DNA from: Dehalococcoidia bacterium
GTDB taxonomy: Bacteria > Chloroflexota > Dehalococcoidia > Lucifugimonadales > VXLM01
NCBI GenBank assembly: GCA_965220255.1
Contig: OZ244816.1
Coordinates: 779,720-843,719, forward strand
DNA length: 64,000 nucleotides
Reading direction: 5' to 3'
The translations under genes and the position numbers were made by a program. A model generated the notes under the pieces. The model was not told the origin of the DNA. It was given only the letters and a program-made list of their open reading frames with translations, and ran no database searches. Shown here piece after piece: positions 1,731 through 60,429 of this stretch; positions within the stretch are counted from its first letter, which is position 1; each line of letters begins with the position of its first letter.

Positions 1731-2405
1731 TCAGTTAGCCGCAGTCAGATCCTTGAGCACGTTCTCCCATTCGGCAGGACTGCCCTGTCCGAAGCCGGAA
1801 CGGTAGACAATTACGCCGTTTCCGTCGATGGCGACCTTAGTGGACTGTCGGGTGACGTTGAAGTCTTCAATCATGTTATCGCTTGGCGTCGCCACTTCTC
1901 CAACATGCCCACTCCTGTTCTGGGCCGCCGACAGGATGTCCAGAGATTCATTAAACGCGACGGCGTAGAGATCGACCGAGTCCTCAAAGGGCGGATACAC
2001 GGTGGTCAAGCCCCGCAACGCGGAGCGACAGTCCGATCACCAGGTGGCGTGGAACAGGATGAATACCGGTTTCCCCTCGGACACGAGATCGGTCGAGTTG
2101 ACGGACCGGTCGCCAGTGAGGGCCAGCATGTAGTCGGGCGCGCGGTCGCCGACACGGTGTCCGACGGGGACGGTTTCCTCGGAAGGCGCGGGCGCAGGAG
2201 CCGCAGTTGGTTCAGGAGCGGCCGCGGGCGGCGGGGAAGTCTGCGCTGCGGGTGGAGGAGGCGCAGACGCCGGTGAGGTCGCAGTCGTGTCGGCGGGTTG
2301 GGACTCGCTGGAAGAACCGGAGTCGCTTCCGCATGCGACAGCGGCGAGCAAAGAAAGCGCCGCGACAGAGACAACGACGTATCGAATGGTGGTTACGCGG
2401 TTCAT
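1731..2405 (-). CDS. TlpA/ResA-like thioredoxin-fold lipoprotein, predicted selenoprotein (Sec = TGA 2037..2039, motif W-U-S-D-C)
   Basis: ORFs 2037..2405 and 1731..2018 share one frame and are joined only by TGA. Lipobox LAAVAC-G. ...GKPVFILFHATW-[TGA]-SDC sits at the W-C-x-x-C position. The rest of the thioredoxin fold continues after the TGA. A hairpin lies 10 nt downstream. Confidence 0.7.
2010..2036 (-). other. Putative bacterial SECIS element (10-nt spacer + hairpin gcuccgc-guu-gcggggc)
   Basis: Immediately 3' of TGA 2037..2039; 26 nt identical to the paralogue at 2867..2892; 7-bp stem, G/U apical loop. Confidence 0.55.
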
Positions 2406-2434
2406 GGCGATGTCACCTCCACGATCTTGTTAGT

Positions 2435-2487
2435 GGATTCCCGCCCCGTATCGAGTACGGGGTGACGTTCTTCCGGGGGAATGACGG
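2435..2487. repeat. REP-A hairpin, long variant (ggattcccgc-[ccccgta..tacgggg]-..gggggaatgacgg)
   Basis: Same nested form at 3784 and 49686; short form at about 15 other sites. Confidence 0.75.
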
Positions 2488-2535
2488 CATGGGGGCTGTG
2501 TTCTCGGACATGCACATCATGCCTCCAGTCTTTCC

Positions 2536-2584: not shown

Positions 2585-3688
2585 CTATTGTACGCTGTTG
2601 GCCAGTTCTTGGAGGACGGCGGCCCACTCGGCCGGGCTGCCTCGTCCGTAGCCGCTACGGTAAGTGATTACGCCGTTCCCGTCGATGGCCACCTTGGTGG
2701 ACTGCTGCGTCACTCTGAAGTCTCTGACCATGTTCCCCACAGCCCTGGCCACCGTACCGGCATGACCGCTCTCGTTCTGGTAGGACTGCAGAACGCTGAG
2801 AGGCTCGTCGAAGGCCACGGCGTAGAGGGCCACCTTGTCCTTGAACTGTGGATAGATCTCCGTCAGGCCCCGCAACGCGGAGCGACAGTCCGGTCACCAC
2901 GTTGCGTGGAACAGGATGAAGACGGGCTTCCCCTGCGCCACAAGGTCGGTGGAACTTACCTGGCTGCCTCCCGCAATGTTCAGGACATAGTCGGGAGCGA
3001 GATTGCCGACATTCGTGCCGGGCTGGGCAGTGACGGCAGATCGAGTCGGCTCAGGTTCCGGAACGGAAGTGGGAGTCGGCGGGACGGGCGTATACGTCGG
3101 GGTGGGCGGCACGGGCGTGTTCGTGGGTGTCGGAGGGACAGGCGTCGGAGTCGGAGGCAGCGGAGTTGGAGTAATCGTAGGCGTGGACGTGGACGTCGGA
3201 GTAGGCGTGCGAGTCGGCCTTGGGGTAAACGTGGGAATGAATGTCGCCGTAGCGGTTGGGGTGGGCTCGGCCGCGGCCTGTCCGTCCGATGTCGATGCGG
3301 GCACTGTGGGCGGGACTGACGTGGGCGTTGCCGTGGGAACAGGTGTTGAAGTTGGTAAGACAGGCGTCGCGGTTGAAGTGGAAGTGGGGACCGTCGTCGG
3401 CGTGGCTGTCGACGGCTCCGTGGTTGCGGTGGGTTCAGGCGTTGGGGGCGTCGTTGGAGTTGGGACCGGAGCCGGGGTTGAGGTCGGCGGCTGAGGCGTC
3501 GGTTCCGTGGTAGCCGTGGGTTCCGGCGTGTTGGTTGGTATTGCTGTAGGAACGGACTGCGCTAGAGGGGTAGCCGGTTCGTCGGCGCTCTCCTCAGGGG
3601 CACTGTCGGACTCGCCGCCGCAAGCAATGACGGCCACCGTCAACATGGTCAGCAGCCAATAGACCGATATGTGGATGAAGCGCTTCAT
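2585..3688 (-). CDS. TlpA/ResA-like thioredoxin-fold lipoprotein with long Pro/Thr linker, predicted selenoprotein (Sec = TGA 2894..2896, motif W-U-P-D-C)
   Basis: ORFs 2894..3688 and 2585..2875 share one frame and are joined only by TGA. Lipobox AVIAC-G. ...GKPVFILFHATW-[TGA]-PDC. The C-terminal half is homologous to the copy at 1731..2018. Confidence 0.7.
2867..2893 (-). other. Putative bacterial SECIS element (same hairpin as 2010..2036)
   Basis: Block cggactgtcgctccgcgttgcggggc is identical in both paralogues while flanking codons differ at wobble positions. Confidence 0.55.
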
Positions 3689-3936: not shown

Positions 3937-5130
3937 ATGAGCAGCGTACCCGAATCGAAGGTTCCTGTGATGCCGCCGCGTATTTTGCTGGGGCCCGGGC
4001 CGAGCAATACGAGCCCGCGTGTTCTGCAGGCAATGATGTCGCCGATGATCGGGTATGCAGACCCGGACTTCATGGTCGTGCTGGACGAGTTGTCGGATCT
4101 GCTGCGTCAGGTATTCCGCACCGAAGAGGGACTGGCCATAGCACTGCCGGGAACGGGCAGCGCGGGAATGCAGGCGGGGCTGAACAGCCTGTTGGAACCG
4201 GGCGATACGGTGGTGATCTGCTCATGCGGTTACTTCGGGGAGCGGATGGCGGATATGGCAGAGAGGCTTGGGGCCAACGCCGTCGTGCTGCGCGGCGAGT
4301 GGGGTGAACCTTTCCCGCCGGAGATGCTGGCAGAGGAGCTAGACCGGCAGGATAAGGTAAAGCTGGTGGCGGTGGTCCACGCGGAGACCTCGACCGGCGT
4401 GCTGCAGCCATTGGATGAGATTGCCGGGTTGGCGAAGGCGCATGGCGCGTTGCTGATGGTGGACGCGGTGACGTCGCTGGGGGGGAGTGAACTCGCGTTC
4501 GACGATCTGGGCATCGACTACGCGTACTCGTGCAGCCAGAAATGCCTGGGTGCGCCGCCGGGAATAGGGCCGGTGGCGGTCGGTCCGCGGGCGCTTGAGG
4601 TGATCGAATCACGGACGACGAAGCCGCCGTCGTGGTACCTCGACCTTGGGCTGATCGCGAAGTACTGGGGACCGGAGCACGTGTACCATCACACGGCGCC
4701 GGTGAGCATGATATTGGGGCTGCGTGAGGCGCTGCGGATCGTGCTGGAAGAGGGTCTCGAAAGCAGGGTGGCTCGTCACCAACGGAACTCGGCGGCGCTG
4801 CGCGCGGGCGTCTCGGCACTGGGCCTTGATTTTCTTGTGCCGGAATCGTACCGGCTCGATCAGATTACTGCGGTGAAGATCCCTGAAGGAGTCGATGACG
4901 CGACGGTGCGGCAACGTCTGTTGAAGGAGCACACGATAGAGATCGGCAAGGGTTTCGGGCCGTTCGACGGGAACGTGTGGCGGATCGGGCTGATGGGCGA
5001 GTCGAGCAAGGCGGAGTACCTGCTGGCTCTGCTTTCGGGCCTGGAGGGGATATTACCGGACGAGGGGTACGAGGTCGCGCAAGGTGCGGCAGTGTCGGCG
5101 GCGAGCAGGTATCTGTCGGAGGCGACGTAA
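3937..5130 (+). CDS. Class V aminotransferase (alanine-glyoxylate / serine-pyruvate aminotransferase family)
   Basis: 397 aa; PLP-lysine context SCSQKCLGAPPG; RBS gaggtga upstream. Confidence 0.85.
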   Translation: MSSVPESKVPVMPPRILLGPGPSNTSPRVLQAMMSPMIGYADPDFMVVLDELSDLLRQVFRTEEGLAIALPGTGSAGMQAGLNSLLEPGDTVVICSCGYFGERMADMAERLGANAVVLRGEWGEPFPPEMLAEELDRQDKVKLVAVVHAETSTGVLQPLDEIAGLAKAHGALLMVDAVTSLGGSELAFDDLGIDYAYSCSQKCLGAPPGIGPVAVGPRALEVIESRTTKPPSWYLDLGLIAKYWGPEHVYHHTAPVSMILGLREALRIVLEEGLESRVARHQRNSAALRAGVSALGLDFLVPESYRLDQITAVKIPEGVDDATVRQRLLKEHTIEIGKGFGPFDGNVWRIGLMGESSKAEYLLALLSGLEGILPDEGYEVAQGAAVSAASRYLSEAT

Positions 5131-5134
5131 GAGG

Positions 5135-5170
5135 GGATTCACCACAGAGGGCGCGGAGAACGCAGAGGGG
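5135..5170. repeat. REP-G copy (ggattcaccacagagggcgcggagaacgcagagggg)
   Basis: Related copies at 10864, 15795, 33294; usually directly followed by REP-A. Confidence 0.65.
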
Positions 5171-5175
5171 GAGAT

Positions 5176-5200
5176 GGATTCCCGCTTTCGCGGGAATGAC
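5176..5200. repeat. REP-A hairpin (ggattcccgc-tttc-gcgggaatgac)
   Basis: Perfect 10-bp stem, 4-nt loop. Confidence 0.8.
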
Positions 5201-5255
5201 CATGGCCTTGCTCAAGGCTACATGAGGGTACGTAAATTGGGTTTACGCCGAGGAC

Positions 5256-5281
5256 GGGCAACCACAAGGGTTGCCCCTACG
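5256..5281. repeat. REP-E hairpin
   Basis: gggcaaccacaagggttgcccctacg, identical to 697..722. Confidence 0.75.
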
Positions 5282-5351
5282 ACGGGTTCGCCGGGGCCTA
5301 TTTTCATAGCAATGACGGGTTTGGTCAATATTACTGAGAAGAGGACAATCG

Positions 5352-6988: not shown

Positions 6989-6992
6989 GAGG

Positions 6993-7019
6993 CCCTTCGA
7001 CGGGCTCAGGGGCGAACGG
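6993..7019. repeat. REP-D copy
   Basis: cccttcgacgggctcaggggcgaacgg. Confidence 0.65.
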
Positions 7020-7056
7020 TGGGATGGTACGGGCCGGCTCGCTCCCCCTCTCTGTA

Positions 7057-10863: not shown

Positions 10864-10905
10864 GGATTCACCACAGAGAGCACAGAGATCACGGAGAAGG
10901 AGGGG
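10864..10905. repeat. REP-G copy
   Basis: ggattcaccacagagagcacagagatcacggagaaggaggggg. Confidence 0.6.
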
Positions 10906-10949
10906 GCTTTTGCCCTCACCCTAGCCCCCGTATCTAGTACGGGGCCGGC

Positions 10950-10969
10950 TCTCTCCCGCGAACGGGAGA
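10950..10969. repeat. REP-B-like hairpin (ctctcccg-cgaa-cgggagag)
   Basis: Same sequence as 34557..34580. Confidence 0.65.
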
Positions 10970-10975
10970 GGGGAT

Positions 10976-11002
10976 TAGATTCCCGCTTTCGCGGGAATGA
11001 CG
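10976..11002. repeat. REP-A hairpin
   Basis: agattcccgctttcgcgggaatgacgg. Confidence 0.8.
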
Positions 11003-13070: not shown

Positions 13071-14402
13071 CTGACAGGGGTAGGTATTTCGTATTTTAGG
13101 TATCAGTGCCATAGATCATCCTCAGATTTGGCGACGGTTCGGGCCAAGCTTCAGGAAGCAGCCAGACCCTCTGCCACAGCCTGCCTTTGAGCAACAGACG
13201 ATTCAGCCAAATGATGCCCTGACGCAATACGCTTACAATCCGTCTCGGTCTGTTTGTGGCACTTCGATGTGTGGGCGAGACAAACTTCGGAGGCGCTCTG
13301 AGACGACTAGGGTTTACGCCCAAGCCGCTGGCATCTTCGACTCTGGTCCCATATGCCAGCGCCAATAGAGTTGACACAGACAACACCAGCCAATGACGAC
13401 TGACCCGTTCGGGATCTGTCCGGCGAGTCTTCTGCCATTGCCACCCAACGCTCTTGATCGCTTTGAAGCCCAGTTCTATCCAGAAGCGAAGTGCGTACCA
13501 GCACACCCCAGCTTCAGCAGGTGGGAGATCTGTCATCACAACCCATGGCTCTTGTTGGTCTTTGTCCCAGACCACAATCATTGTCCCCCGACGGCGTATG
13601 CTTGTGGCCCTGAACGCGGTCCCACCACCAACCCATGCGTGACCCGGCCCTGGTACGAGATACCGCGCTGGCAGACGAGTCCCTCCATCAGGACAGAAGA
13701 CGGTGTTGATCGACTGTCGTACGTAGGGATGCCACCCCGAAGAGCGTATCTGCTCCCACAACCTCGGACTCCTCAGACCACGGTCGCACATCACCAGCAC
13801 AGTCTTGTCCTTTGGGACCGCCGAAGACAGCAACGCCAGCAAGTCCACCACAGGGGATATCCACTGTCCGGGACTGTTGGCGGGAAGAATGTGCCAGGCA
13901 ACCGGAATGGCACAACTGCGATAGACCACGCTTATGACTATGGAGTTTAGCTTGTCGGCCTTCATCGTCGGGTCTATAGCTAACACTAGCCTGTCCGACT
14001 GCCACAATGACAGTACCCACCTCAACAGCGGAACAAAGCACGACCTCACATCCAATTGCACTTGGCAGGGCTTAGAACGGTCTTGACCATCGTAGAGCCA
14101 CTCTCTGATGTACTGACGCAGACTGTTGTAGTTACCCATAACCGAAAGGGCTGCACTGACAGCGTTCTGGCAACTACTCCCGGCCAGTATGGTCCCGTAC
14201 ACCCACAGAACCAGTCCTTTTATCTGAGAGTGTCTGAGCTGAGGCATGTGTTGTTCGACAGTCTGGAGCATCTGGTAGCATTCAGGTGGGAGGCGCATGG
14301 CGAATCTCTGGCAACCTTTCTGTCTGATACCAAAAAGATGCCAGAAACCCATGCGCTTTCCAAGTTCTTATACTTATTTTATATTTTACCTACCCCTGTC
14401 AG
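13071..14402 (-). mobile_element. Intact IS4-superfamily insertion sequence (1332 bp), 16-bp perfect terminal IRs ctgacaggggtaggta, 11-bp TSD cccccgccggg
   Basis: IRs at 13071..13086 and 14387..14402. Direct repeats at 13060..13070 and 14403..14413. Single transposase ORF. CTGAC termini as in IS10/IS50. Confidence 0.8.
13096..14352 (-). CDS. DDE transposase, IS4 superfamily
   Basis: 418 aa; LAIDPT (D), VLVMCDRG (D), YALRFWIELGFKAIK = Y-x2-R-x3-E-x6-K signature. Confidence 0.85.
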   Translation of the reverse strand: MGFWHLFGIRQKGCQRFAMRLPPECYQMLQTVEQHMPQLRHSQIKGLVLWVYGTILAGSSCQNAVSAALSVMGNYNSLRQYIREWLYDGQDRSKPCQVQLDVRSCFVPLLRWVLSLWQSDRLVLAIDPTMKADKLNSIVISVVYRSCAIPVAWHILPANSPGQWISPVVDLLALLSSAVPKDKTVLVMCDRGLRSPRLWEQIRSSGWHPYVRQSINTVFCPDGGTRLPARYLVPGPGHAWVGGGTAFRATSIRRRGTMIVVWDKDQQEPWVVMTDLPPAEAGVCWYALRFWIELGFKAIKSVGWQWQKTRRTDPERVSRHWLVLSVSTLLALAYGTRVEDASGLGVNPSRLRAPPKFVSPTHRSATNRPRRIVSVLRQGIIWLNRLLLKGRLWQRVWLLPEAWPEPSPNLRMIYGTDT

Positions 14403-41935: not shown

Positions 41936-42610
41936 CTACAGGCCAGCCGATGTGAGGTTCTTGGTCGCCACGTGCTCGCCCGTGACGAGGTAGATGACAC
42001 GCTTGGCGATGTTGGTCGCTCGGTCGGCGATCCGTTCGAGGTCGTGGGCGACCCACAGTAGGTACGTGGCTCGCGTGATGGTCCGAGGGTCTTCGAGCAT
42101 GAAGGTGAGCAGCTCGCGGTAGATCTGGTCGTAGAGGGCGTCCACCTCGTCGTCATCGGCCCTGATGCCTTCCGCTGCAACGATGTCCCTGCCGACGAGG
42201 GAATCGAGGCTCCTTCGGAGCATTTGAGACGCCTTGTCGGCCATACGGGGGATATCGATAAGCGGTTTGATGGGAGGTTCGTTTCCCATAGCGAGGCTGA
42301 TCTTGGCGATTCCGCTCGCGTAGTCGCCCATGCGCTCAAGCTCGCCGACGATGTGCAGGATCGCGATGATCGTCCGCAGGTCGGTCGCCATGGGTTGTTG
42401 CCTGGCGATGAGGTTGACGCAGCGCTCCTCAATGTCGTGCCGGCGGGCGTCGATTATCGCGTCGTCCTGAACAACCTGGCGGGAGAGGTCGAGATCACGC
42501 GTTTTGAGAGCGTCGACCGAGTTGGCGATGGCCTTCTCGACCATACTGCCCACGGCCAGCAGTTCCTCCTGGAGAAACCGAAGATCGCGTCCGAACTCAT
42601 TTCGGGGCAT
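41936..42610 (-). CDS. phoU: Phosphate signalling complex protein PhoU
   Basis: Start MPRNEFGRDLRFLQEELL (ATG 42610); two PhoU repeats with E/D-x3-D motifs; the longer ORF start overlaps pstB. Confidence 0.9.
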   Translation of the reverse strand: MPRNEFGRDLRFLQEELLAVGSMVEKAIANSVDALKTRDLDLSRQVVQDDAIIDARRHDIEERCVNLIARQQPMATDLRTIIAILHIVGELERMGDYASGIAKISLAMGNEPPIKPLIDIPRMADKASQMLRRSLDSLVGRDIVAAEGIRADDDEVDALYDQIYRELLTFMLEDPRTITRATYLLWVAHDLERIADRATNIAKRVIYLVTGEHVATKNLTSAGL

Positions 42611-42621
42611 GATGACTCCCC

Positions 42622-43476
42622 CTAACTGAACCTGCCCGTTATGTACGCCTCTGTCCGCTCGTCGTCCGGGTTGGTGAAGATGTTTGTGGTCTTGCCGAAC
42701 TCGACCATGTAACCTGCGCGGTCGTCCGGGTCGACCATGAAGAAGGCCGTCTCGTCGGAGACGCGCGCGGCCTGCTGCATGTTGTGGGTGACGATGATGA
42801 TGGACACGTCGTTGACGAGTTCCTTGATGAGGTCCTCGATAGCCTGGGTCGAGATCGGGTCGAGGGCAGATGCCGGCTCGTCCATGAGGAGCACCTCCGG
42901 CTCGGGCGCGAGGGCGCGGGCGATGCACAGTCGCTGCTGCTGTCCGCCGGACAGCTCCAACGCGTTCTCCTTCAACCGATCCTTGACCTCGTCCCATAGC
43001 GCGGCGCGACGGAGGGAACGTTCGACCGCTTCGGAGTAGTTGCCGGTGTAGCCGTTGACCCTGAGTCCAAAGGCGACGTTCTCGTAGATGGACTTCGGGA
43101 AGGGGTTGGGCTTCTGGAAGACCATGCCGATGCGGGAACGCATCTCGGTCGGGTCGATGCTGGGGCCGTAGAGGTCTACGTCCCGGAAGAGGATTGTGCC
43201 GCCGACGCGCGCGCTGCGAATGAGGTCGTTCATGCGGTTGAAGCAGCGGAGGACGGTGCTCTTGCCGCAGCCGGACGGCCCGATGAACGCCGTGACCTTG
43301 TTCGACTGGACTGACATGAACACGTCTTTCACGGCTCGGAAGGAACCGTAGAACACCTCAAGCGACTGCACGTCGAGGACGACATCAGTCTGAATCTCGC
43401 CAGCGGTTTCCGGCTGCTTGACTGTCAATTGAGACGGGACGATGTTTTCCGGGCGTTTCGTAGTCTGACCTTGCAT
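42622..43476 (-). CDS. pstB: Phosphate ABC transporter ATP-binding protein
   Basis: Walker [10 protein letters not shown], signature LSGGQQQRL, Walker B LLMDEP; PstB-specific tail. Confidence 0.95.
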
Positions 43477-43504
43477 GATTCCTCGCTGACTGCGGAAGAG
43501 CTTG

Positions 43505-44419
43505 TCACTCGATGGAGCGACTCTGGAACTTGTTCCGCAGGTAGACGGCGAGGGCGTTCATGGAGAGCAGCACTATAAGCAGGACCACTATACCACCCGC
43601 TGCGAGGCCCTGAAAGTCCGCCTGTGGACGGGAGATCCAGTTGTAAATCTGTATGGGGAGAACGGTAAATCTATCGAGGGGGCCCTGCGGGATGAAGGTC
43701 AGGTAGACCAGCGCGCTGATGGCGATCACGGGGGCCGTCTCGCCGACCGCGCGCGACATCGCCAGGATGATGCCCGTCAGCATCCCCGGGAAGGCCGAGG
43801 GGAGCACCACGCCGCGGATGGTCTCCCACTTGGTCGCTCCGAGGGCAAACGAGGCCTGCCGGTAGGTATCAGGCACCGCCTTGATCGCCTCCCGCGACGC
43901 CAGAATGACGATGGGCAGGACGAGCAGCGACATCGTCAGCGCCCCGGCCAGGACGCTCCGACCGAGATTGAACTCGATCTGGGTACTGCCGTACTCGAAC
44001 GTGTACCCGTGAACGAACAGCGCCAACCCCAACAGGCCGTAGACGATGGAAGGAACGCCCGCCAGGTTCGCGATGTTGATCTCGATGAACTGGGTCAGGC
44101 GGTTCTCCGGGGCGTACTCTTCCAGGTAGATTGCGGCCCCGATACCGACGGGAACGCAAAACAGGGCTGTCAGCCCCATAAGCCAGAGCGTCCCGAACAA
44201 AGCGGCCTTGAGGCCAGCCTGCTCAGGAAAGCGGGAAGGGAAGTTGAAGATGAGCTCGGGTCGGAGCCAGTCGACACCCTGAAAGAATACCTGTAGGAGC
44301 AAGACGCCGAGCCCAATGATGCCGACCGCGACCGCAGCGACGAGGACGACATAGGCAATCGCGCCCTTGAGCTTGCGGGTCTCAAGATTCGGATGGAACC
44401 GCTCGGTCCTGGGAATCAT
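43505..44419 (-). CDS. pstA: Phosphate ABC transporter permease PstA
   Basis: ATG 44419 overlaps the pstC TGA (ATGA); alternative start 44437; EAA-loop ...REA..AVP...[13 protein letters not shown]. Confidence 0.9.
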
Positions 44420-45390
44420 TCGTACTTGAGCCCCCATTTCCGGACTATGGCATAACCCATGACGTTCATGACGAGCGTCATGAGGAATAACAACAGTCCA
44501 ACGGCGAAGATCGTGTTGAACTCAAGAGAACCGTGAGGCGTCTCGCCCAGGCTCAACTGAACGATGTAGGCGGTCATGGTCTGGATACTCTCGAGTGGGT
44601 TGATGGTGAGCTTCGGGGTGGCGCCTGCGGCGATGGTGACGAGCATCGTCTCCCCGATCGCGCGAGACAGGCCGATGATGAAGGCGGCCATGATGCCCGA
44701 CAGGGCAGCCGGAATGACGATCTTGGTCGACACCTCGAAGCGGGTTGCGCCCAGTGCGTATGCCGCCTGTCGGAGCGAGTTCGGCACCGCGAGCATGGCG
44801 TCCTCGCTCAGCGAGGAGACCATCGGGAGGATCATGATGCCCATAACCAGTCCGGCGCTGAGTGCGTTGAAGACCAACATATCGGGGAAGATGCGCTGGA
44901 GCTGGGGGGTGACGAAGGTTAGCGCGAAGTAGCCGTACACGACGGTCGGGATGCCCGCCAGCACTTCGAGTATCGGCTTGATGGCGCGCCTGACCCTGTC
45001 GTGGGCGTACTCGGACAGATAGGTGGCGGCGGCGAGTCCGACCGGGATCGCCACGGCCGCGCCCAGGAACGTTACCAGCATCGTTCCCCCAACCAGCGGG
45101 AGGACGCCATACGACCTCGGCTTCAGGATCGGCGACCACCGGGCCTCTCCCAGGAACTCCCATACCGGGATCTGCGAGAAGAACCCCCACGACTGGATGA
45201 CCAGAGAAAGAAGGATGGCGACCGTGGTCAGGATGGAGAGGATCGCGCACACGAACACCAGGTGCTTGACGAGCGTGCCTTCCCACGTCCTCTTGTTGCG
45301 CTTGAAGAGCGCGCGGTACTCGCTTCCCGCCGACTTCAAGACGTCGGAGGGCGATTCAGGGCTGCTCTGAGCCGCGGACTCTAAACTCAA
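44416..45390 (-). CDS. pstC: Phosphate ABC transporter permease PstC
   Basis: 324 aa, 6 TM, ...[15 protein letters not shown]... permease signature. Confidence 0.9.
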
Positions 45391-45418
45391 GTAATCCCCT
45401 TCCAGTCTTCTTGCACTT

Positions 45419-45446
45419 CGGGGCGGAGGGTGACTCCTCCGCCCCG
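45419..45446 (-). promoter_or_regulatory. Strong intercistronic hairpin between pstS and pstC
   Basis: cggggcggagg-gtgact-cctccgccccg, 11-bp G/C stem, no U tract after it on the minus strand. Confidence 0.5.
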
Positions 45447-45509
45447 GTATGAATACTCCGTAATACGGACCCTGTCAATAGTCCAGGGCCCTCTGTGACA
45501 GCTGTCTGT

Positions 45510-46529
45510 CTAGTTTCCCTGGACCATCTTGAGATTGTCCATGTAAGCGTCGGACGAAACCGGCACGTAACCGACTTCGCGGGTCAACTCCTCACCCCGC
45601 TCCATGTAGAACTCGACGAAGGTCTTGACCTCAGGACGCTCGAGACTCTCCTTGTTTACGTAGATGAAGAGCGGGCGGGTGAGGGGCTTGTACTCGCCCG
45701 AAAGGATGGTGTCCGGCGTCGGGGTCACACAGCCGTCGCCGTTGTCCACGGCCACCAGCTTCAGCTTGTCGGCGTTCTCCGCGTAGTAGGCGTAGCCGAA
45801 GTAGCCAAGCGCGTTGCGGTCGCCGCTGATGCCCTGCACGAGAACATTGTCGTCGGCGCTCGCCGTGTAGTCGGCGCGGCTCACCTGCGCCTCTCCGTTG
45901 ATCTCCTCCGTGAAGAAGTCGAACGTGCCGGAGTCGGTGTCTGGGCCGTACAGCCTGAGCGGTCGGTCAGGGAAGCCGGAGCGGACCTGGTTCCAGTTGT
46001 TGACCTCTGAACCGGTGTCCCAGATCATCTTCAACTCTCCAACCGTCAGGCAGTCGAGGAAGTCGTTCTGCGTCGAGACCATGACCGAGAGGCCGTCCGT
46101 GCCCACGCGAAGCTCGTAGTATTCTACGCCGTTGGAGGCCGCTGCCTCTTTCTCGGAGTCCTTGATGCCGCGAGAGGCGTCGGAGATATCGGTCTCGCCG
46201 ACCGTGAACCGCTTGAAGCCGCCGCCCGTGCCCGACACGCCGACATTTACGCGGACGTTGCGGTGGACCTTGTTGAACTCCTCGGCGACAGCCTCGCTAA
46301 TAGGGAAGACCGTGCTCGATCCGTCAATTTCAATTGTGCCGCTCAGGTTGACGGGCTCTTGCGCAGGAGCCGGGGCTGGCGACTGAGAAGTGCTTGCGGC
46401 AGGGGCGGGCGCGGGCGATGTGGTCTCTTCCTCATCGTCCCCGGAACACGCAATCAACAGCGTGGACATCATCAATAGCAAGAGACCAATCACACTCCCG
46501 CGCCCAAACAATCTACCTACGGATGACAT
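45510..46529 (-). CDS. pstS: Phosphate-binding lipoprotein PstS
   Basis: Start MSSVGRLFG... (ATG 46529, RBS aaggagga); lipobox LLIAC-S; GSSTVFP and ASRGIKDSE motifs. Confidence 0.9.
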
Positions 46530-46616
46530 TTTCGTAATTCCTCCTTGGAATCCCTTGGTTTTTGATCTCTGAAGATTCTTCCAACGGAAAACTCTATCTT
46601 GCTCAGCCAACTCGTC

Positions 46617-49740: not shown

Positions 49741-49832
49741 GGGTGGGCTCCCGTTCGGTTCGTGCATGGTTCAGATCTGCTTCGGGTAGGAGCGGCGTAT
49801 GGTACGATGTGCTACCGATCAAGGGAGTCACC

Positions 49833-50876
49833 ATGCCGACGCTTGGACTGATAACGCTCATAGGATCGGGAGAGACCGCGCCGAGCGGTCGCGCACTGTA
49901 CGAACCGGCGTTTGACAGGCTGCCCAAGCCGGTGAAGGTCGCGGTCATGGAGACCCCGGCGGGGTTTGAGTTGAACTCGCCGCATGTGGCGAGTCGCGTT
50001 TCCGAGTTCATCCGGCACAGGCTGCAGAACTACAAGCCCGACGTTACCGTAGTTCCCGCGCGGCGGCGCGATACGGAGTTCGGCACGAACAACCCGGACA
50101 TCCTGCGACCGCTTCTCGACGCCGACTGCATCTTCATGGGGCCGGGGAGCCCCAGCTACGCCGTGCGTCATCTGACGGGAACCTACGCATGGGACATGAT
50201 ACAGGCGCGTCACCGCCTCGGCGCATGCCTGACGTTCGCCAGCAGCGCGGCCATAGCCATCGGCGAGACGGCGGTTCCGATCTACGAGATCTACAAGGTC
50301 GGCGACGATCCTCACTGGATACCTGGGCTTGACCTGCTCGGCCCATTGGGACTCAGGATCGCCTGCGTCACCCACTGGAACAACACGGAGGGCGGCGCGA
50401 ACCTGGACACGAGCCGGTGCTACATCGGAAGGGCCAGGCTAGAGACGCTTCTCCCCGCCCTGTCGGACGGCACGGTCGTGGTGGGAATCGACGAGCACAC
50501 CGCGCTCACACTCGACTTTTCGGAGCGAACATGCAGGGTTCTGGGCAAGGGAACCGTCACGCTCGTTGACGACGGGAAAGAGCGAGTATTCCGGGTCGGC
50601 TCAGACTTCCCCATGAGCGAGCTTGGCGACGTCCGCATACCGGACGATTCGGAGGGCATCCGCCCGGAAGTGTGGGAGGAGATGTCTGATGTCCAGCGGA
50701 CGAGGGACGAAACCACGTCGACACTGCCTGACGAGGCGGCAGCCCTCATCGCCGAGCGCGAGGAGGCCCGACGCATGAAGGACTGGAACAGGGCCGACAC
50801 GCTTCGGGATCAAATTGCCGAATTGGGCTACACCGTGACCGACACGCCCGAAGGGCCGAAGTGGGAGGTCGCTTAA
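49833..50876 (+). CDS. Peptidase S51/cyanophycinase-like (class I glutamine-amidotransferase-fold) domain fused to a CysRS C-terminal-like helical tail
   Basis: Start MPTLGLITLIGSGE (RBS aagggag). FMGPGSPSY and FASSAAIAIGE resemble S51 motifs. The C-terminus EREEARRMKDWNRADTLRDQIAELGYTVTDTPEGPKW matches the last ~45 aa of cysteinyl-tRNA synthetases. Confidence 0.55.
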   Translation: MPTLGLITLIGSGETAPSGRALYEPAFDRLPKPVKVAVMETPAGFELNSPHVASRVSEFIRHRLQNYKPDVTVVPARRRDTEFGTNNPDILRPLLDADCIFMGPGSPSYAVRHLTGTYAWDMIQARHRLGACLTFASSAAIAIGETAVPIYEIYKVGDDPHWIPGLDLLGPLGLRIACVTHWNNTEGGANLDTSRCYIGRARLETLLPALSDGTVVVGIDEHTALTLDFSERTCRVLGKGTVTLVDDGKERVFRVGSDFPMSELGDVRIPDDSEGIRPEVWEEMSDVQRTRDETTSTLPDEAAALIAEREEARRMKDWNRADTLRDQIAELGYTVTDTPEGPKWEVA

Positions 50877-53922: not shown

Positions 53923-54459
53923 ATGACGACGATGTTGGAAGTGTTCGACCCGACGGTTGACCCGATACCCGCGCATGGAGTGGTCGCCAAGCGCCCTGAC
54001 ACGCTGAACGGGGCCGTCGTTGGCCTATTGGCGAATGGCAAGCAGAACGCCGACGAACTCCTCGAAATGGTGCATGACGTTCTCGCCGACCAGTTCGAGT
54101 TCAAGGCCGTCATCGCCCGCAACAAGGGGAACGCATCCCGCCCATGTCCCACGGACATCGTGGACGACCTGGCCTCAAGCTGCGACGTGGTGATCACCGG
54201 GAACGGTGACTGAGGGTCCTGTTCATCGTGCAGTGTGCACGACGGAATCACCCTTGAGAAGGCCGGTCTGCCGACAGCGGTGATCTGCACGGAGCCGTTC
54301 ATACCGAGCGCCCGCGCCATGGCGAAAATCCAGGGCATCCCCGACTATCCGTACATCATCCTTCCGCATCCGCTGGGCAGTCTGACGCCGGGCGAGCTTC
54401 GCAGTCACGCGGTCAAGATTGCCCCCGAGGTGCTGAGCATCCTGCTGGGGAAGGGGTAG
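53923..54459 (+). CDS. UGSC-motif protein, predicted selenoprotein (Sec = TGA 54211..54213)
   Basis: ORFs 53923..54213 and 54235..54459 share one frame. Read-through gives ...VVITGNGD-U-GSCSSCSVHDGITLEKAGLPTAVICTEPF...PHPLGSL. A hairpin lies 12 nt after the TGA. The 178-aa total fits my recollection of the UGSC (seleno)protein family. Confidence 0.7.
54214..54242 (+). other. Putative bacterial SECIS element (12-nt spacer + hairpin ucgugca-gug-ugcacga)
   Basis: Perfect 7-bp stem with G/U loop at the canonical distance from the TGA. Confidence 0.5.
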
Positions 54460-55354: not shown

Positions 55355-55401
55355 ACTTGGGGCGGGATTACAACGGAATTTCTGAGAATGTATCACCGCC
55401 T

Positions 55402-55998
55402 CTACCCGATCACGTCCTTCGTGCTCGGGACGTTGCTCATCCTGCGCTCGTCCCGCTCTGCCGCTATGCGCATGGCGCGGGCGAGGGCCTTGAAGATCGC
55501 CTCGGCCTTGTGGTGGTTGTTGGCCCCTGACAGCAGCCGGACGTGCAGGTTGAACTTGCCTTCGAGGGCGAAGCTCTCCAGGAAGTGGTGGACCAGGCTG
55601 CCGGACAGTCCGCCGAGGTCGGCATCGCCCATGGATGCGTCGATGACCGCGTAACCGCGACCGCTGAGATCGACCGCGACGAACGCCAGGGTCTCGTCGA
55701 GCGGCACGTAGGAGTGGGCGGTGCGGGTGATGCCGCGCGCATCTCCGACGGCTTCCTGTAGGGCACGCCCGAGGCAGATCGCCGTGTCCTCTACCAGGTG
55801 GTGCCATCCCACCTCGATGTCACCCTGCGCCTCGATTTCGAGGTCGATCAGGCCGTGCCTCGAAAGCTGGGCCAGGAGATGATCGAACATGCCGTTGCCG
55901 GTCTTGATGCTGTAGTCGCCCACGCCGTCGAGGTCGATTGCAACGGATATCTGCGTCTCGCCCGTTCGGCGGTCTATGCTGGCTTTCCTCGACTCCAT
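55402..55998 (-). CDS. hisB: Imidazoleglycerol-phosphate dehydratase (monofunctional)
   Basis: Start MESRKASIDRRTGETQISV (RBS ggtggagga); DHLLAQLSRHG, HHLVED, HHKAEAIFKA motifs; no phosphatase domain. Confidence 0.92.
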   Translation of the reverse strand: MESRKASIDRRTGETQISVAIDLDGVGDYSIKTGNGMFDHLLAQLSRHGLIDLEIEAQGDIEVGWHHLVEDTAICLGRALQEAVGDARGITRTAHSYVPLDETLAFVAVDLSGRGYAVIDASMGDADLGGLSGSLVHHFLESFALEGKFNLHVRLLSGANNHHKAEAIFKALARAMRIAAERDERRMSNVPSTKDVIG

Positions 55999-56033
55999 TC
56001 CTCCACCTCGCGTCATTATCCCTCGGCTCAAGT

Positions 56034-56106
56034 CGTCATTCCCGCGAAAGCGGGAATCTATTCCCCTTCCCTAACACGTTAGAAACCCGAACTGGATTCC
56101 CGCTTT
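56034..56106. repeat. Composite REP-A element, second copy (3' part truncated)
   Basis: 29 nt + 21 nt identical to 55269..55354. Confidence 0.7.
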
Positions 56107-56183
56107 AGGATACCTTTGCGTAACCGCTCTTCCACTAAGAGATTGTCCGTGAAAGGGCATCTCCCAGCTTTGGAGACGTTTCT

Positions 56184-56209
56184 GGATTCCCGCCTTGGCG
56201 GGAATGACG
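56184..56209. repeat. REP-A hairpin
   Basis: ggattcccgccttggcgggaatgacg. Confidence 0.75.
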
Positions 56210-56261
56210 CTGGTTGTTCAAAGGTCTCCTTTCGCGAGAATGACGGGAATGTCTCTATTGC

Positions 56262-57350
56262 CTATACGAACTCCTGCAGCGCAGCCACTACGGCGTCGGT
56301 GTCGCTCGGCGTCCCGACGGATATCCTGAAGTAGTCGCGCAGTCGCTTGGAGCTGAACTTCCTCAGGAAGATGCCACGCATGGCCATCTTCTCGAATATC
56401 TCCTCGGCGCGACCGGGCTGGAACTCGCAGAGCACGTAGTTTCCACCCGACGGCAGCGGCCTCACTCCGGGGATGCCGTTGAGCAGGTCGATCAGCCGCT
56501 CGCGCTCGCTGACGATCAGGTCGCGGTTCCCATCCAGGTATTCCGCGTCTTCGAGGGTCGCCATGAGCGCCGCCTCGGATGCGGTCGTGACGTTGTACGG
56601 CTGCTTGATGTCGATGATGTGGTCGACGAGCGTCGGCGACATGATGCCGTAGCCGATGCGGAGTCCCGCTATGCCCGCCCACTTGCTCATCGTCCGCAGG
56701 ACGATCAGGTTGTCGTGGTCTTCCACCATCGAAGCGGCAGTCCTGCCGGAGAACTCCCAGTAGGCCTCGTCTATGACGACCAGCAGGCCGGTCTCGACGA
56801 GTCCCTCGATTTGTTCGGGGGTAGCCAAGTTGCCTGTCGGGTTGTTGGGCGAGCAGAGGAAAATGATCCTGGCCCGCTCGTCGATGGCCTCCTTCACGGC
56901 GTCCACGTCGACATCGAACTTCTCGTCGCGCTGCACGAAGACGGTCTCCGCGCCGTTCACCCTCGCGTCGAAGGAGTACATGCCGAAGGTCGGCTCACTG
57001 TCGATGATCCTGTCGCCCGGCTCGATGACCAGCCGGAAGATGAGGTCGATGATCTCGTCACTTCCCGCGCCCGCGATGATTCGCTCCGCAGGCACTCCCG
57101 TAAACTCCGAGAGGGCAGCCCGGACCTTGCGCTGGAACGGGTCGGGGTAAATGTTGTACGGGACGCTCGCGACCGCGTCCGCGACCTTGGGTGAGAACCC
57201 GTACGGGTTCTCATTCGCGTTGAGGCGAACGATCTCCTCCTCGGTGATGCCGGCCTTGCTCGCCTGCAGCTCAGGCGGGTCGGCCGGGCTGAAGGTCTCG
57301 ATCTCCCGAAGGTGAGGTCTTATGAAGCTCTTGAGGTCGATATTGCTCAT
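56262..57350 (-). CDS. hisC: Histidinol-phosphate aminotransferase
   Basis: 362 aa; LNANENPYG, TMSKWAGIAGLRIGY PLP-lysine context; ATG overlaps the hisD TGA. Confidence 0.9.
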   Translation of the reverse strand: MSNIDLKSFIRPHLREIETFSPADPPELQASKAGITEEEIVRLNANENPYGFSPKVADAVASVPYNIYPDPFQRKVRAALSEFTGVPAERIIAGAGSDEIIDLIFRLVIEPGDRIIDSEPTFGMYSFDARVNGAETVFVQRDEKFDVDVDAVKEAIDERARIIFLCSPNNPTGNLATPEQIEGLVETGLLVVIDEAYWEFSGRTAASMVEDHDNLIVLRTMSKWAGIAGLRIGYGIMSPTLVDHIIDIKQPYNVTTASEAALMATLEDAEYLDGNRDLIVSERERLIDLLNGIPGVRPLPSGGNYVLCEFQPGRAEEIFEKMAMRGIFLRKFSSKRLRDYFRISVGTPSDTDAVVAALQEFV

Positions 57351-58681
57351 CTCTCTTCTTCCGATAGCTCGTCTCTGATTTCCGCCGCCTCGGCGTGGGC
57401 GGTGAGTCCCTCCGCCCTGCCCAGCACCGACGCCGCATGGCTGATCTCGGCCGCTCTCCGCTCGCTCAGGCCGACGACCGGGCTAAACTTGAGGAACGAC
57501 CGTACGCTCAGCCCCGACCCGAATCGCGCCGTTCCGCTCGTCGGCATCACGTGACTCGGCCCCGCCACGTAGTCTCCGAGCACCTCGTGCGAAAAGTCCC
57601 CAAGGAAGACGGCTCCGGCGTTTCTCACACTATTTACGTGGCTCCATGGGTCTCGCATCATGAGCGAGACGTGCTCCGGAGCGAAGGCGTTCGCCAACTC
57701 GAATGCCTCGTCGAGGTCGGCGACGACCGCGATGAGGCCCTGTTCTTCCACGGAGCGGGCGGCCATCTCGGACCGGTCCAGCCTGCTCAGTCGTAGCTCT
57801 ATCTCCGAGTTTACGCGCTCTGCAAGCGAGTCGGAAGTCGTTATGAGTACCGGTTTCGCGAGAATGTCGTGCTCGGCCTGCGCGAGGAGGTCCGCCGCGC
57901 ACAGGGTAGGATTGCCGTTCTCATCGGCGATCACGAGCGTCTCCGTCGGGCCGTACAGCCCGTCTATGCCGACCTCGCCGAACACGAGCTTCTTGGCGAG
58001 CGTCGTGAAGAGACCGCCCGGCCCGCAGACCATGTCCACCCTGGGGACCGACTCGGTGCCGTAGGCCATGGCGGCGACGGCCTGCGCCCCGCCAATCTGA
58101 AGGACACGGTCCGCTCCCGCTATATCTGCCGCCACCAGCACGACGGGATGGATGCCCCGGTCGACACCCGGATTCGTCGCTATGATGACCTCGTCCACGC
58201 CCGCAACCCTAGCGGGAATGACGGACATCAGCACCGTGGAGGGGAATCTGGCAGTCCCGCCCGGAACGTATACTCCGACGCGCTCCACCGGGTTTACCAG
58301 CTCGCCGTACCCCTCGCCAAAGTCCACCCAACTCTCAGGTCTGCTTTTCTCCTGGAACCGCCGGACGCGCTCGGCGGCCAGACGCAGAGCGTCAAGGACC
58401 TCATCATCGACCGCGTCGTAGGCCTGCTCGATAGCGGACGCCGGGACCTGCAGATCTCCAAGCTCCACACCGTCGAGCCGCTTGGTTATTTCTCGCACGG
58501 CATCATCGCCGCCCTCGCGGACTCGGTCGATGATGTACTGCGCCGTCTCGATCGGCGTCATCGCCTTACCGAAGGTCGTTTCGGTGCGTTCGAGCATGGA
58601 GGCGGGCACGGAGTCGAGACCCAGCCCGCGCCCGGCGAGCAGGGTCTCCCTCGACTCTTCCAGTCCGTATACGATTCTCAT
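57347..58681 (-). CDS. hisD: Histidinol dehydrogenase
   Basis: 444 aa; ...VYVPGGTA.FPSTVLM..IPA.VAGV, AQAEHD, APEHV, GDY.AGPSHV.PT motifs. Confidence 0.95.
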   Translation of the reverse strand: MRIVYGLEESRETLLAGRGLGLDSVPASMLERTETTFGKAMTPIETAQYIIDRVREGGDDAVREITKRLDGVELGDLQVPASAIEQAYDAVDDEVLDALRLAAERVRRFQEKSRPESWVDFGEGYGELVNPVERVGVYVPGGTARFPSTVLMSVIPARVAGVDEVIIATNPGVDRGIHPVVLVAADIAGADRVLQIGGAQAVAAMAYGTESVPRVDMVCGPGGLFTTLAKKLVFGEVGIDGLYGPTETLVIADENGNPTLCAADLLAQAEHDILAKPVLITTSDSLAERVNSEIELRLSRLDRSEMAARSVEEQGLIAVVADLDEAFELANAFAPEHVSLMMRDPWSHVNSVRNAGAVFLGDFSHEVLGDYVAGPSHVMPTSGTARFGSGLSVRSFLKFSPVVGLSERRAAEISHAASVLGRAEGLTAHAEAAEIRDELSEEER

Positions 58682-59418: not shown

Positions 59419-59427
59419 GGGCAGGGC

Positions 59428-60420: not shown

Positions 60421-60429
60421 GAAAGGCCC

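Follow-up and report, generated by a model that had tools for sequence, protein, structure and literature searches.

Two open reading frames on the minus strand of a Dehalococcoidia contig, 2037..2405 and 1731..2018, lie in one frame with little more than a TGA between them, and the question this locus raises is whether that TGA ends a gene or is read as selenocysteine (Sec) inside a single one. We addressed it within a 64,000-nucleotide stretch of the contig (the window) and in related genomes. Our results indicated that the two annotated ORFs are very probably one gene, predicted from its sequence to encode a membrane-tethered thiol-disulfide oxidoreductase in which Sec takes the place of the first active-site Cys. 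A U-x-x-C selenoprotein had been proposed here by a sequence-only reading of the window, and this proposal is backed by the conservation of the TGA, by the alignment with Cys proteins and by a SECIS-type hairpin.

Gene layout and predicted product

Between the two ORFs lie the TGA and a further 18 nt that hold no second stop, and when joined they give the 224-residue product that the sequence-only reading had described. We refer to the gene as gene B; its features are:

1731..2405 (minus): predicted selenoprotein gene B, 224 codons plus stop, from sequence, frame, Pfam, TGA conservation and substitution pattern
2420..2414 (minus): Shine-Dalgarno-like GGAGGTG, 8 nt 5' of the ATG, read in the sequence
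2405..2403 (minus): start ATG, read in the sequence
2331..2405 (minus): predicted lipoprotein signal peptide with the lipobox A-V-A-C25 at its end, from the translation, by eye
2181..2330 (minus): low-complexity Ser/Pro/Ala/Thr tether, residues 26-75, from the translation
1734..2180 (minus): predicted TlpA/ResA/CcmG-like thioredoxin-fold domain, residues 76-224, from PDB sequence matches and the model of a homologue
2039..2037 (minus): Sec-TGA, residue 123, aligned with the nucleophilic (N-terminal) Cys of CxxC
2030..2028 (minus): TGT, Cys126, the resolving Cys of U-x-x-C, invariant in 52 of 52 copies
1733..1731 (minus): true stop TGA, read in the sequence

The codons around the Sec site run CAC GCC ACC TGG TGA (2039..2037) TCG GAC TGT (2030..2028) CGC TCC GCG TTG (2018..2016), which places the active site at W122-U123-S-D-C126, and the translation carries the TGA in the context that had been reported for it, ...KPVFILFHATW-*-SDCRSALRG. 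The signal peptide and lipobox (LLAAVAC25|GS) and the Ser/Pro/Ala/Thr linker are likewise present as described. The lipobox Cys, read by eye, is kept in every N-terminal piece of the homologues (LLTAVACGS, LLTAAACGS, FVAACSS and others), and the tether differs in length between them. From the signal peptide and the conserved lipobox Cys, the product of gene B is predicted to be extracytoplasmic and lipoprotein-anchored. When the joined protein was compared with Pfam, it matched AhpC-TSA with 40 bits (cut-off 26) over residues 85-201, that is, across the TGA.

Conservation of the TGA and reading beyond it

Next, we compared the family copies in the window with those in 32 Dehalococcoidia genome loci (numbered from L001), a set of 52 copies in which the homologues are 37-84% identical to the window protein. 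All 52 carry TGA at the Sec codon and none carries TGC or TGT, which rules out the error that resequencing had been suggested to expose. Close homologues in the protein database are all split alike, into N-terminal pieces that end in ...KPVFILFHATW and C-terminal pieces of ~95 aa. The sequence-only reading had named homologues that truly end at this position as evidence against it; we found none, and every N-terminal piece in the database breaks off at ...HATW, with conserved coding sequence continuing in frame beyond it.

Substitutions relative to L001-L015 fall at codon positions 1, 2 and 3 in the numbers 329, 244 and 655 on the 3' side of the TGA (101, 74 and 266 on the 5' side), and this dominance of third positions argues that translation continues through the TGA. 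The first in-frame start codon past it is the TTG in the loop of the hairpin described below, downstream of the resolving Cys; the six codons from the TGA to this first possible start, resolving Cys included, are conserved, and L026 has no in-frame start codon for 21 codons past the TGA. Elsewhere in the window TGA is an ordinary stop, closing about 25 of the 58 likely genes, gene B among them.

The column of the TGA is that of the catalytic Cys. As the sequence-only reading had expected of Cys homologues, the single one that we found, P0020, carries Cys in this column; it reads WATWCSVCKGEL, with the active site WATWCSVC. In an alignment of PDB sequences, the first Cys of the CxxC motif of ResA (Bacillus anthracis, TWCKPC) and of CcmG (Escherichia coli, ATWCPTCRAE) falls there too.

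A SECIS-type hairpin follows the TGA

A G+C-rich hairpin of 6-7 bp starts 10 nt past the UGA, with the following parts:

2005..2029 (minus): bSECIS-type hairpin, by fold, covariation and published criteria
2026..2020 paired with 2016..2010 (minus): core stem, by fold
2019..2017 (minus): apical loop GUU, +21..+23 from the U of the UGA, by fold and loop invariance
2029..2027 paired with 2007..2005 (minus): short lower stem, by fold

[quoted passage not shown] A search for a bacterial SECIS 3' of the TGA had been proposed, and when we applied these criteria to the 40 nt that follow it the hairpin passed all four, with a (C)GUU(G) loop, a stem of 6-7 bp, a UGA-to-loop distance of 17 nt and an MFE of -16.3 kcal/mol. 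Across the family the loop has 3-5 nt with the pattern N1-G-U-N-N2, the G-U-U is invariant and always the same number of nucleotides from the UGA, and the MFE over 45 distinct copies ranges from -8.3 to -23.4 kcal/mol.

Pairing is found in 88% of cells across the family, compared with 37-60% in slid controls. Compensatory change is seen in three of the seven pairs, among sequences that are related to one another: pair 16-28 occurs as U-G, G-C, U-A, A-U and G-U, pair 18-26 as C-G or U-A, and pair 14-30 as G-C or C-G. Moreover, the paired columns co-vary by non-synonymous changes, Ser/Gly, Ser/Ser, Ala/Arg and Thr/Leu giving U-G, U-A, G-C and A-U. The covariation score was 0.241 against 0.072 in shuffles, none of 500 shuffles reached 0.241 (kinship among the sequences inflates these shuffle statistics) and slid registers gave at most 0.08. 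In L019, L020, L025, L026 and L028 the helix is retained by means of a one-base bulge. Single-sequence folds are unexceptional for G+C-rich DNA, with z-scores of -1.5 and -1.4 and with 14 and 24 of 200 shuffles folding equally well. Because the hairpin overlaps the conserved peptide C-R-S/A/T-A/E-L-R, constraint on the protein could account for some of the hairpin's conservation. P0020 also folds a hairpin 3' of its TGC, but a different one that lacks the GUU loop and has AACUC in its place. An Rfam scan of the window gave no match at gathering thresholds; to our knowledge Rfam holds no general bacterial SECIS model, and this null result is therefore uninformative.

Fold and family placement

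The domain matches the PDB sequences of ResA, CcmG/DsbE and PG_2175 with E values of 3e-9 to 1e-6. In the AlphaFold model of P0020 (pLDDT of ~90 for the domain) the active-site Cys comes after strand 95-100 and before helix 105-121 begins, and this model superposes on SdbA, ResA, DsbE and Etrx1/2 with TM scores of 0.71-0.86. Judged by sequence and by the P0020 model, with fold matches at TM 0.80-0.86, the gene B domain is predicted to be a TlpA-like thioredoxin fold with a dithiol-type motif at the N-terminus of helix alpha-1. The cis-Pro loop is missing from it: where ResA has P-T-S and CcmG has P144, the alignment shows an invariant Q-S-T-K with Ser in place of Pro, and P0020 is likewise devoid of the cis-Pro (QSSK).

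ResA, CcmG/DsbE and TlpA are Cys-containing extracytoplasmic reductases for the maturation of cytochrome c and Cu centres. ResA (Bacillus), CcmG/DsbE (E. coli) and TlpA are the best matches in sequence and fold, with W-C-x-x-C in the same place; ATWCPTCRAE of CcmG compares with TSWUPTCRAEL of L016, and a C-terminal IDGNG(I/V)I.YR is common to CcmG and the window family. Like these proteins, the window family is predicted to be membrane-anchored and, by analogy, may act as a reductant outside the membrane; unlike them, it has Sec for the first Cys and Ser for the cis-Pro, and genes for cytochrome c maturation, ccdA and Sco are missing from the vicinity of its loci. With the equivalog models for ResA and DsbE(CcmG) the scores stayed far below the curated cut-offs, at 37-48 bits for NF002854 (cut-off 170), 25-36 bits for TIGR00385 (123) and 27-38 bits for NF011941 (359); the protein is not an orthologue of ResA or CcmG. 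Among the top fold matches of the P0020 model were SdbA of S. gordonii and the surface-exposed lipoprotein thioredoxins Etrx1/Etrx2 of Streptococcus pneumoniae (5um7, TM 0.84; 4hqs and 2yp6, TM 0.71-0.77), whose TlpA-like domains are held by a lipid or membrane anchor outside a single membrane. Both are Cys enzymes, at 20-25% identity, and no surface methionine sulfoxide reductase partner was seen here.

The peroxidatic motif P-x-x-x-T-x-x-C(U) is missing. The sequence is H-A-T-W-U-S-D-C, a thioredoxin-type U-x-x-C and not T-x-x-U, so that despite its PF00578 match the protein is 'Prx-like' and not a peroxiredoxin. No selenoprotein model of NCBIfam matched the window protein. Four reports (PMC9312934, PMC13188914, PMC2398784, PMC1088965) describe Prx-like thiol:disulfide oxidoreductase selenoproteins (PF00578, UxxC/UxxU), named 'Prx-like 1' in the GOS survey. 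Compared by Pfam and motif (reference, for example, WP_010940744.1), 'Prx-like 1' and the window family are both AhpC-TSA proteins with Sec first in U-x-x-C, both from marine bacteria and both of uncharacterised function, and the GOS examples compared share the motif ...F-W-T-T-W-U-P-x-C... with the window family. These same examples retain the cis-Pro (...GYPT...) where the window family has Q-S-T-K; moreover, the window family differs in being a long-tether lipoprotein, in its tandem pair and in being found only in Dehalococcoidia. By description (references MGB1650493.1 and HEU0032618.1) the family also resembles the thiol-disulfide isomerase-like selenoprotein of the Sargasso Sea (cd02966, UxxC), with which it has the TlpA-like fold and U-x-x-C in common, and the 'Redoxin family protein' selenoprotein (PF08534, UxxC), P0020 having precomputed matches to both PF08534 and PF00578.

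Other predicted selenoprotein genes on the contig

Two more genes in the window contain an in-frame TGA at a putative Sec position:

2585..3688 (minus): tandem paralogue A, 367 codons plus stop; ATG at 3688, stop TAG at 2587..2585
2896..2894 (minus): Sec-TGA of paralogue A, residue 265, in W-U-P-D-C, from the translation
53923..54459 (plus): UGSC-family selenoprotein gene, 178 residues; NCBIfam NF041046, 155 bits (cut-off 125)
54211..54213 (plus): Sec-TGA of the UGSC gene, in GNGD-U-GSC, conserved in L017, L027, L029 and L032
54226..54242 (plus): hairpin of the UGSC gene, with G23-U24 in the loop, by fold

Paralogue A, which the sequence-only reading did not pick up, has the lipobox VIAC, a Pro/Thr tether of ~210 residues and the same hairpin as gene B (core 2883..2867; MFE -17.1). 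The tandem pair is also found in L001-L010, L016, L021-L023 and L025; L015 and L028 likewise carry a second copy. The UGSC gene is unrelated to the TlpA-like genes and lies 52 kb from gene B on the same contig; its sequence supports Sec decoding as a trait of this organism.

Sec machinery and gene neighbourhood

The bacterial Sec pathway consists of SelA, SelB, SelD and tRNA-Sec. Pfam and NCBIfam scans found selA, selB and selD in none of ~50 scanned ORFs of the window, which covers 64 kb of a 3,477,165-bp contig, and ARAGORN detected no tRNA-Sec in the window or in 33 loci. In L019 a selA gene lies ~4.4 kb upstream of the orthologue of gene B (TIGR00474, 568 bits; cut-off 268), and in L020 tblastn gave a matching SelA hit (1e-93), likewise ~4.4 kb from the orthologue; the SelA and SelD queries used for tblastn were approximate E. 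coli sequences. With such a SelD query, a short match appeared at the edge of L025, and a match in L028 turned out on a profile check to be ThiL and not SelD. SelA and SelB have been reported as enriched in bins of sponge symbionts (PMC5649159). The class-V aminotransferase gene at 3937..5130 was considered as a selenocysteine lyase or cysteine desulfurase and rejected, being BhcA/PhnW-like.

The loci of close relatives have aminotransferase, SDR, DHDPS-like and 2-hydroxyacid dehydrogenase genes in common; those of distant relatives contain PTE, MFS, DUF3291, S58 peptidase, FKBP or HAD genes. When we searched the neighbourhoods in the window and in the relatives for a redox partner, no ccdA/dsbD, ccs/res, sco or msr genes were present. 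A functional operon link of gene B was rejected on account of these variable neighbourhoods and of the missing redox partner gene.

Alternative readings of the TGA

A real stop at the TGA would leave a 122-aa lipoprotein stub with a separate 95-aa protein or nothing behind it, the locus then being a split gene or a pseudogene. Gene callers and NCBI take this view at present, for instance in the adjacent 'hypothetical proteins' OXK79_06120 and OXK79_06115, and one report (PMC4513850) describes UGA termination as competing with Sec insertion in vivo, so that some of the stub is probably produced. We consider a real stop very improbable, since it would remove two thirds of the fold along with the catalytic motif, a pseudogene would not keep the TGA in 52 of 52 copies at 37-84% identity, the substitution pattern places the frame past the TGA under purifying selection, and the downstream piece has no conserved start codon, its only candidate being the TTG in the hairpin loop. 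An error of sequencing or assembly that turned TGC or TGT into TGA, or a recent point mutation, is a vanishingly small prospect: TGA is a single substitution away from either Cys codon, and an SDR gene at L001:19005, with TGA where eight relatives have Cys, is a probable case of this kind, but here the same TGA is present in 33 independent assemblies, from short and long reads alike, and in both paralogues of the window.

Low-level read-through of UGA by tRNA-Trp or tRNA-Cys is known in bacteria, and no Sec machinery was found within the 64-kb window, as would suit a UGA read as Trp, Gly or Cys without selenium, whether by genome-wide reassignment or by context-dependent near-cognate read-through. 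We regard such decoding as highly unlikely, given that TGA closes about 25 of the 58 likely genes of the window, that the recoded site is the exact column of the catalytic Cys, that the UGA is followed by a covarying hairpin whose loop bears the bSECIS signature, that a second gene on the contig has its TGA exactly at the U of a curated UGSC family and that selA adjoins the orthologues in relatives. It is also unlikely, in our judgement, that gene B encodes a selenoprotein whose hairpin is just a by-product of the conserved C-R-S-A-L-R-G, with the true recoding signal elsewhere. The stem codons do specify conserved residues, the single-sequence z-scores are weak and relatedness inflates the shuffle statistics; against this, non-synonymous substitutions alter the two sides of the stem in step, the five loci with a one-base bulge (L019, L020, L025, L026 and L028) keep the helix regardless, the G-U-U loop is invariant at a constant distance from the UGA where the Cys homologue has AACUC, and a bacterial SECIS should lie directly 3' of its UGA (PMC13188914).

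Proposed mechanism

Under the preferred reading of gene B as a selenoprotein gene, SelB-GTP carrying Sec-tRNA(Sec) would bind the GUU loop while the UGA stands in the ribosomal A site, and Sec would be inserted in place of termination. With selenium or SelB limiting, release factor 2 would terminate translation and leave the 122-residue stub. The full-length pre-protein would be exported, lipidated at Cys25 and held outside the cytoplasmic membrane by its flexible Ser/Pro/Ala/Thr tether, where Sec123 may attack disulfides of substrates (or sulfenates or selenylsulfides) and Cys126 would resolve the mixed intermediate to give a selenylsulfide. By analogy, the latter would presumably be re-reduced through a membrane electron shuttle of the CcdA/DsbD type, fed by cytoplasmic thioredoxin.

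Meaning for the family and the organism

UxxC selenoproteins of the Prx-like and TlpA-like kinds have been known since 2004-2008; gene B is thus a further example of an established type, and it leaves current views of Sec decoding and of thioredoxin-fold selenoproteins unchanged. Tentatively, and with rather less than even confidence, we suggest that the family forms a distinct, uncurated subfamily of selenoproteins restricted to Dehalococcoidia from marine and sponge habitats. Such a subfamily may be marked by an apparently obligatory Sec (52 of 52 copies, with a single distant Cys form), by a surface lipoprotein with a long Pro/Thr tether, by genes that usually stand as a tandem pair and by Ser in place of the cis-Pro of the thioredoxin fold. 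It could serve an extracytoplasmic role other than the maturation of cytochrome c or Cu centres, for example selenol-based defence of the cell surface against oxidants or electrophiles.

In 33 Dehalococcoidia genomes, no fewer than 52 genes are now deposited as pairs of truncated "hypothetical proteins" that should be merged and marked as selenoproteins, and this split annotation would be mended by profile models that carry U at the active site. Together, gene B, the UGSC gene and the selA gene of relatives suggest that abundant marine and sponge-associated Chloroflexota decode Sec. The predicted placement of a selenol outside the cell would tie the surface redox chemistry of these bacteria to their selenium supply.

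A reading frame interrupted by TGA

Reading of the minus strand bore out the layout described in the sequence-only reading, in which only a TGA and 18 nt separate ORF 2037..2405 (-) from ORF 1731..2018 (-) of the mechanical list. Both share one frame because the reading stays open on either side of the TGA at 2039..2037. The features of the joined gene, hereafter gene B, are as follows:

2420..2414 (-), Shine-Dalgarno-like GGAGGTG upstream of the gene B ATG, from sequence reading
2405 (-), ATG start of gene B; the frame is open from here to TGG TGA
2039..2037 (-), in-frame TGA, preceded by TGG and followed by TCG GAC TGT CGC TCC GCG TTG
1733..1731 (-), terminal TGA of gene B, the next stop in frame

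The joined product has 224 residues, with a signal peptide that ends in the lipobox A-V-A-C25 and a tether rich in Ser, Pro, Ala and Thr; translation of the upstream piece thereby upheld the lipoprotein signal and the Ser/Pro/Ala/Thr linker claimed for it. The Pfam AhpC-TSA match to the joined product spans the TGA (40 bits, cut-off 26).

Conservation of the TGA

We searched 5.8 billion predicted proteins and found that nearly all homologues of gene B are half-proteins, the N-terminal ones of 103-152 aa, all ending in ...KPVFILFHATW, and the C-terminal ones of ~95 aa. Some pairs are adjacent in one MAG as "hypothetical proteins" (OXK79_06120 and OXK79_06115). A full-length relative, the database protein P0020 (41% identity), reads WATWCSVCKGEL. 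A scan of one genome per GTDB species yielded 33 loci, all from Dehalococcoidia/Chloroflexota MAGs, sponge-derived and open-ocean bins among them, and wherever a scanned locus includes the site, the codon is TGA. With tandem and dispersed paralogues included, TGA occurs in 52 copies and a Cys codon in none, at identities to the gene B protein from 84% down to 37%. In a sequence search of solved structures, the first Cys of W-C-x-x-C in B. anthracis ResA, B. subtilis ResA, E. coli CcmG/DsbE and PG_2175 falls in the TGA column (E 3e-9 to 1e-5). Cys homologues thus place Cys in this column, as the proposed alignment check anticipated, with P0020, ResA and CcmG/DsbE in agreement. P0020 was the only Cys homologue found, and it sits on a 1.1-kb contig.

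The look of a non-conserved TGA is illustrated by a short-chain dehydrogenase gene at position 19005 (-) of the related locus L001, where eight relatives with 94-96% identity carry Cys (ITAN-C-ISPG); that TGA most likely reflects sequencing error or recent nonsense mutation rather than Sec.

Translation past the TGA and other recoded genes

To compare codon-position patterns, we counted substitutions between gene B and its 15 closest orthologues. Positions 1/2/3 gave 329/244/655 over the 99 codons after the TGA and 101/74/266 over the 45 codons before it, a third-position excess that is alike upstream and downstream. The N-terminal pieces in the databases do stop at ...KPVFILFHATW, yet the downstream frame shows substitutions of the coding type. 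A separate protein encoded by the downstream ORF is not credible, because the earliest in-frame start is a TTG at codon +7, past the resolving Cys, and in one orthologue the 21 codons after the TGA include no start. A general reassignment of TGA was likewise rejected, since TGA terminates ~25 of the 58 likely genes in the window, gene B included.

Screening all in-frame TGAs of the window against the related loci revealed two more recoded genes:

2585..3688 (-), gene A, the tandem paralogue immediately upstream of gene B; ATG 3688, TGA 2896..2894, stop TAG 2587..2585
53923..54459 (+), UGSC-family selenoprotein gene, unrelated to genes A and B; TGA 54211..54213 at the U of G-N-G-D-U-G-S-C

Gene A, divided by the ORF list into 2894..3688 and 2585..2875, encodes 367 residues with the lipobox VIAC, a ~210-residue Pro/Thr tether and W-U-P-D-C, and carries the same SECIS-type hairpin; the tandem pair is kept in many related genomes. 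Only the first 96 codons of the UGSC gene (53923..54213) appear in the ORF list. NCBIfam model NF041046, "UGSC family (seleno)protein", matches its product with 155 bits (cut-off 125), and four homologues (loci L017, L027, L029 and L032) retain the TGA. The loop of its hairpin at 54226..54242 carries G23-U24, the position that these bases also have in E. coli fdhF.

A SECIS-type hairpin

Starting 10 nt after the UGA, the gene B transcript can form the helix GCUCCG(C)/(G)CGGGGC with a G-U-U loop at +21..+23 that is invariant in 50 of 50 aligned copies. Applying the published bacterial SECIS model (PMC13188914) 3' of the TGA, a check suggested by the sequence-only reading, we found agreement with all four of its constraints, on loop, stem, distance and MFE.

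Gene B hairpin compared with the published bacterial SECIS model
Apical loop: published 3-9 nt, G then G or U, N1-G-[G/U]-N-N2; gene B (C)GUU(G), 3-5 nt
Stem: published 4-16 bp; gene B 6-7 bp
UGA-to-loop distance: published 16-37 nt; gene B 17 nt
MFE: published <= -7.5 kcal/mol; gene B -16.3, gene A -17.1

Over 45 distinct copies the MFE ranges from -8.3 to -23.4 kcal/mol. Taken one sequence at a time, the z-scores do not stand out (-1.4 to -1.5). In the 50-sequence alignment 88% of cells are paired, and both partners have changed in three of the seven pairs: 16-28 (U-G, G-C, U-A, A-U, G-U), 18-26 (C-G or U-A) and 14-30 (G-C or C-G). The covariation score, drawn from mutually related sequences, is 0.241, against 0.072 ± 0.016 for shuffles (0/500 as high) and <= 0.08 for slid registers; a 33-sequence alignment gave the same picture. 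The helix overlaps conserved peptide, and non-synonymous substitutions (Ser/Gly, Ser/Ser, Ala/Arg, Thr/Leu) underlie the compensatory changes. In one subgroup of copies the helix is retained with a one-base bulge.

The Cys homologue P0020 has no GUU hairpin at this place and folds into a different one. That hairpin, 3' of the TGC at 507-548 of its contig (L034), is stable (z = -2.3), lacks the GUU loop and could be a chance structure or a degenerate former SECIS.

Together, TGA conservation, the Cys column, the codon-position pattern and the hairpin support the proposed reading of the gene B TGA as W-U-S-D-C, and we regard gene B as very probably a genuine Sec-encoding gene.

Selenocysteine machinery

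No sel genes or tRNA-Sec were found within the 64-kb window, nor tRNA-Sec in the flanks of the related loci. In the related locus L019, selA (4392-5750; TIGR00474 568 bits, cut-off 268), the gene for L-seryl-tRNA(Sec) selenium transferase, lies ~4.4 kb upstream of the gene B orthologue, from which it is separated by genes for a HAD hydrolase and a histidine kinase and by an unassigned ORF. L020 has a matching selA tblastn match (6616-7926) 2.2 kb upstream of its TlpA-like selenoprotein gene; selB is not adjacent. SelA and SelB are reported to be enriched in sponge-symbiont bins (PMC5649159), and tRNA-Sec variants have been reported from Chloroflexi (PMC5389517). Use of Sec by the source organism is indirectly supported.

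Other features of the window

Apart from a transposase gene, the surroundings are of the housekeeping type:

13096..14352 (-), DDE transposase, PF01609
19676..21646, gyrB
~42000..46600, pst genes
~55400..61600, his operon

Short intergenic palindromic units, such as TCATTCCCGCGAAAGCGGGAATC and CCCCGTACT(C/A)GATACGGGG, occur at 2440..2500, 10900..11000 and near 15840, 55260 and 56220, and probably form a REP-like element family. Translated spuriously, they give VIPAKAGIQ, SFPRKRESI and IPAFAGMT, which also occur N-terminally in P0027, a mis-called homologue. In a 377-aa ORF at 49743..50876 (+), the only matches are to the anticodon-binding domain found at the C-terminus of cysteinyl-tRNA synthetase (residues ~327-375) and to a short cyanophycinase-like stretch; the synthetase catalytic domain was not detected in it at E <= 1e-5, and the ORF may have been called from the wrong start, be frameshifted or be fused in an unusual way.

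Fold, function and relatives

The AlphaFold model of P0020 (domain pLDDT ~90) puts the Cys between strand 95-100 and the N-terminal end of helix 105-121. It can be superposed on SdbA, ResA, DsbE and Etrx1/2, the last two being surface lipoprotein thioredoxins of the pneumococcus, at TM 0.71-0.86; the best matches have an rmsd of ~2 Å. The gene B domain falls in the TlpA/ResA/CcmG class, whose members are extracytoplasmic reductants, and has in common with CcmG the active-site context and a C-terminal IDGNG(V/I)I.YR motif. Against curated ResA/DsbE models gene B scores 25-48 bits (cut-offs 123-359), and its protein is the orthologue of no curated member. Unlike ResA and CcmG, the family lacks the cis-Pro: an invariant Q-S-T-K (Q188-S189-T190-K191, about 1842..1833) aligns to P-T-S of ResA and to the P144 position of CcmG, so that Ser replaces cis-Pro in all Sec forms, with a QSSK variant in P0020. 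Ser is unusual here for proteins of this type. Because the peroxidatic T-x-x-C motif of peroxiredoxins is absent, gene B is "Prx-like" in the Pfam sense only.

Neighbourhoods of gene B orthologues vary between clades, and no ccdA/dsbD, cytochrome c maturation, Sco or Msr genes were found in them. Everything proposed beyond the anatomy of gene B would rest on homology. The best-supported mechanism would be a lipid-tethered selenol/thiol redox pair in which attack by Sec123 is followed by resolution to a selenylsulfide through Cys126, acting outside the cytoplasmic membrane with re-reduction from the cytoplasm; we hold the specific role of extracytoplasmic reductant with moderate confidence.

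The selenoprotein type is already known, since U-x-x-C Prx-like, TlpA-like and redoxin selenoproteins are among the commonest predicted in bacteria. Reviews and surveys list a "Prx-like thiol:disulfide oxidoreductase" (PF00578, UxxC/UxxU), a "Thiol-disulfide isomerase-like" type (cd02966, UxxC) and a "Redoxin family" (PF08534, UxxC), and in the GOS "Prx-like 1" set some sequences share the ...W-T-T-W-U-P-x-C... context. The gene B family stands out by Sec in every copy found, its tandem pair, its long-tether lipoprotein form, the missing cis-Pro and its occurrence so far in Dehalococcoidia only. For the field gene B brings no surprise; it corrects an annotation and serves as a useful marker that a major marine lineage uses Sec.
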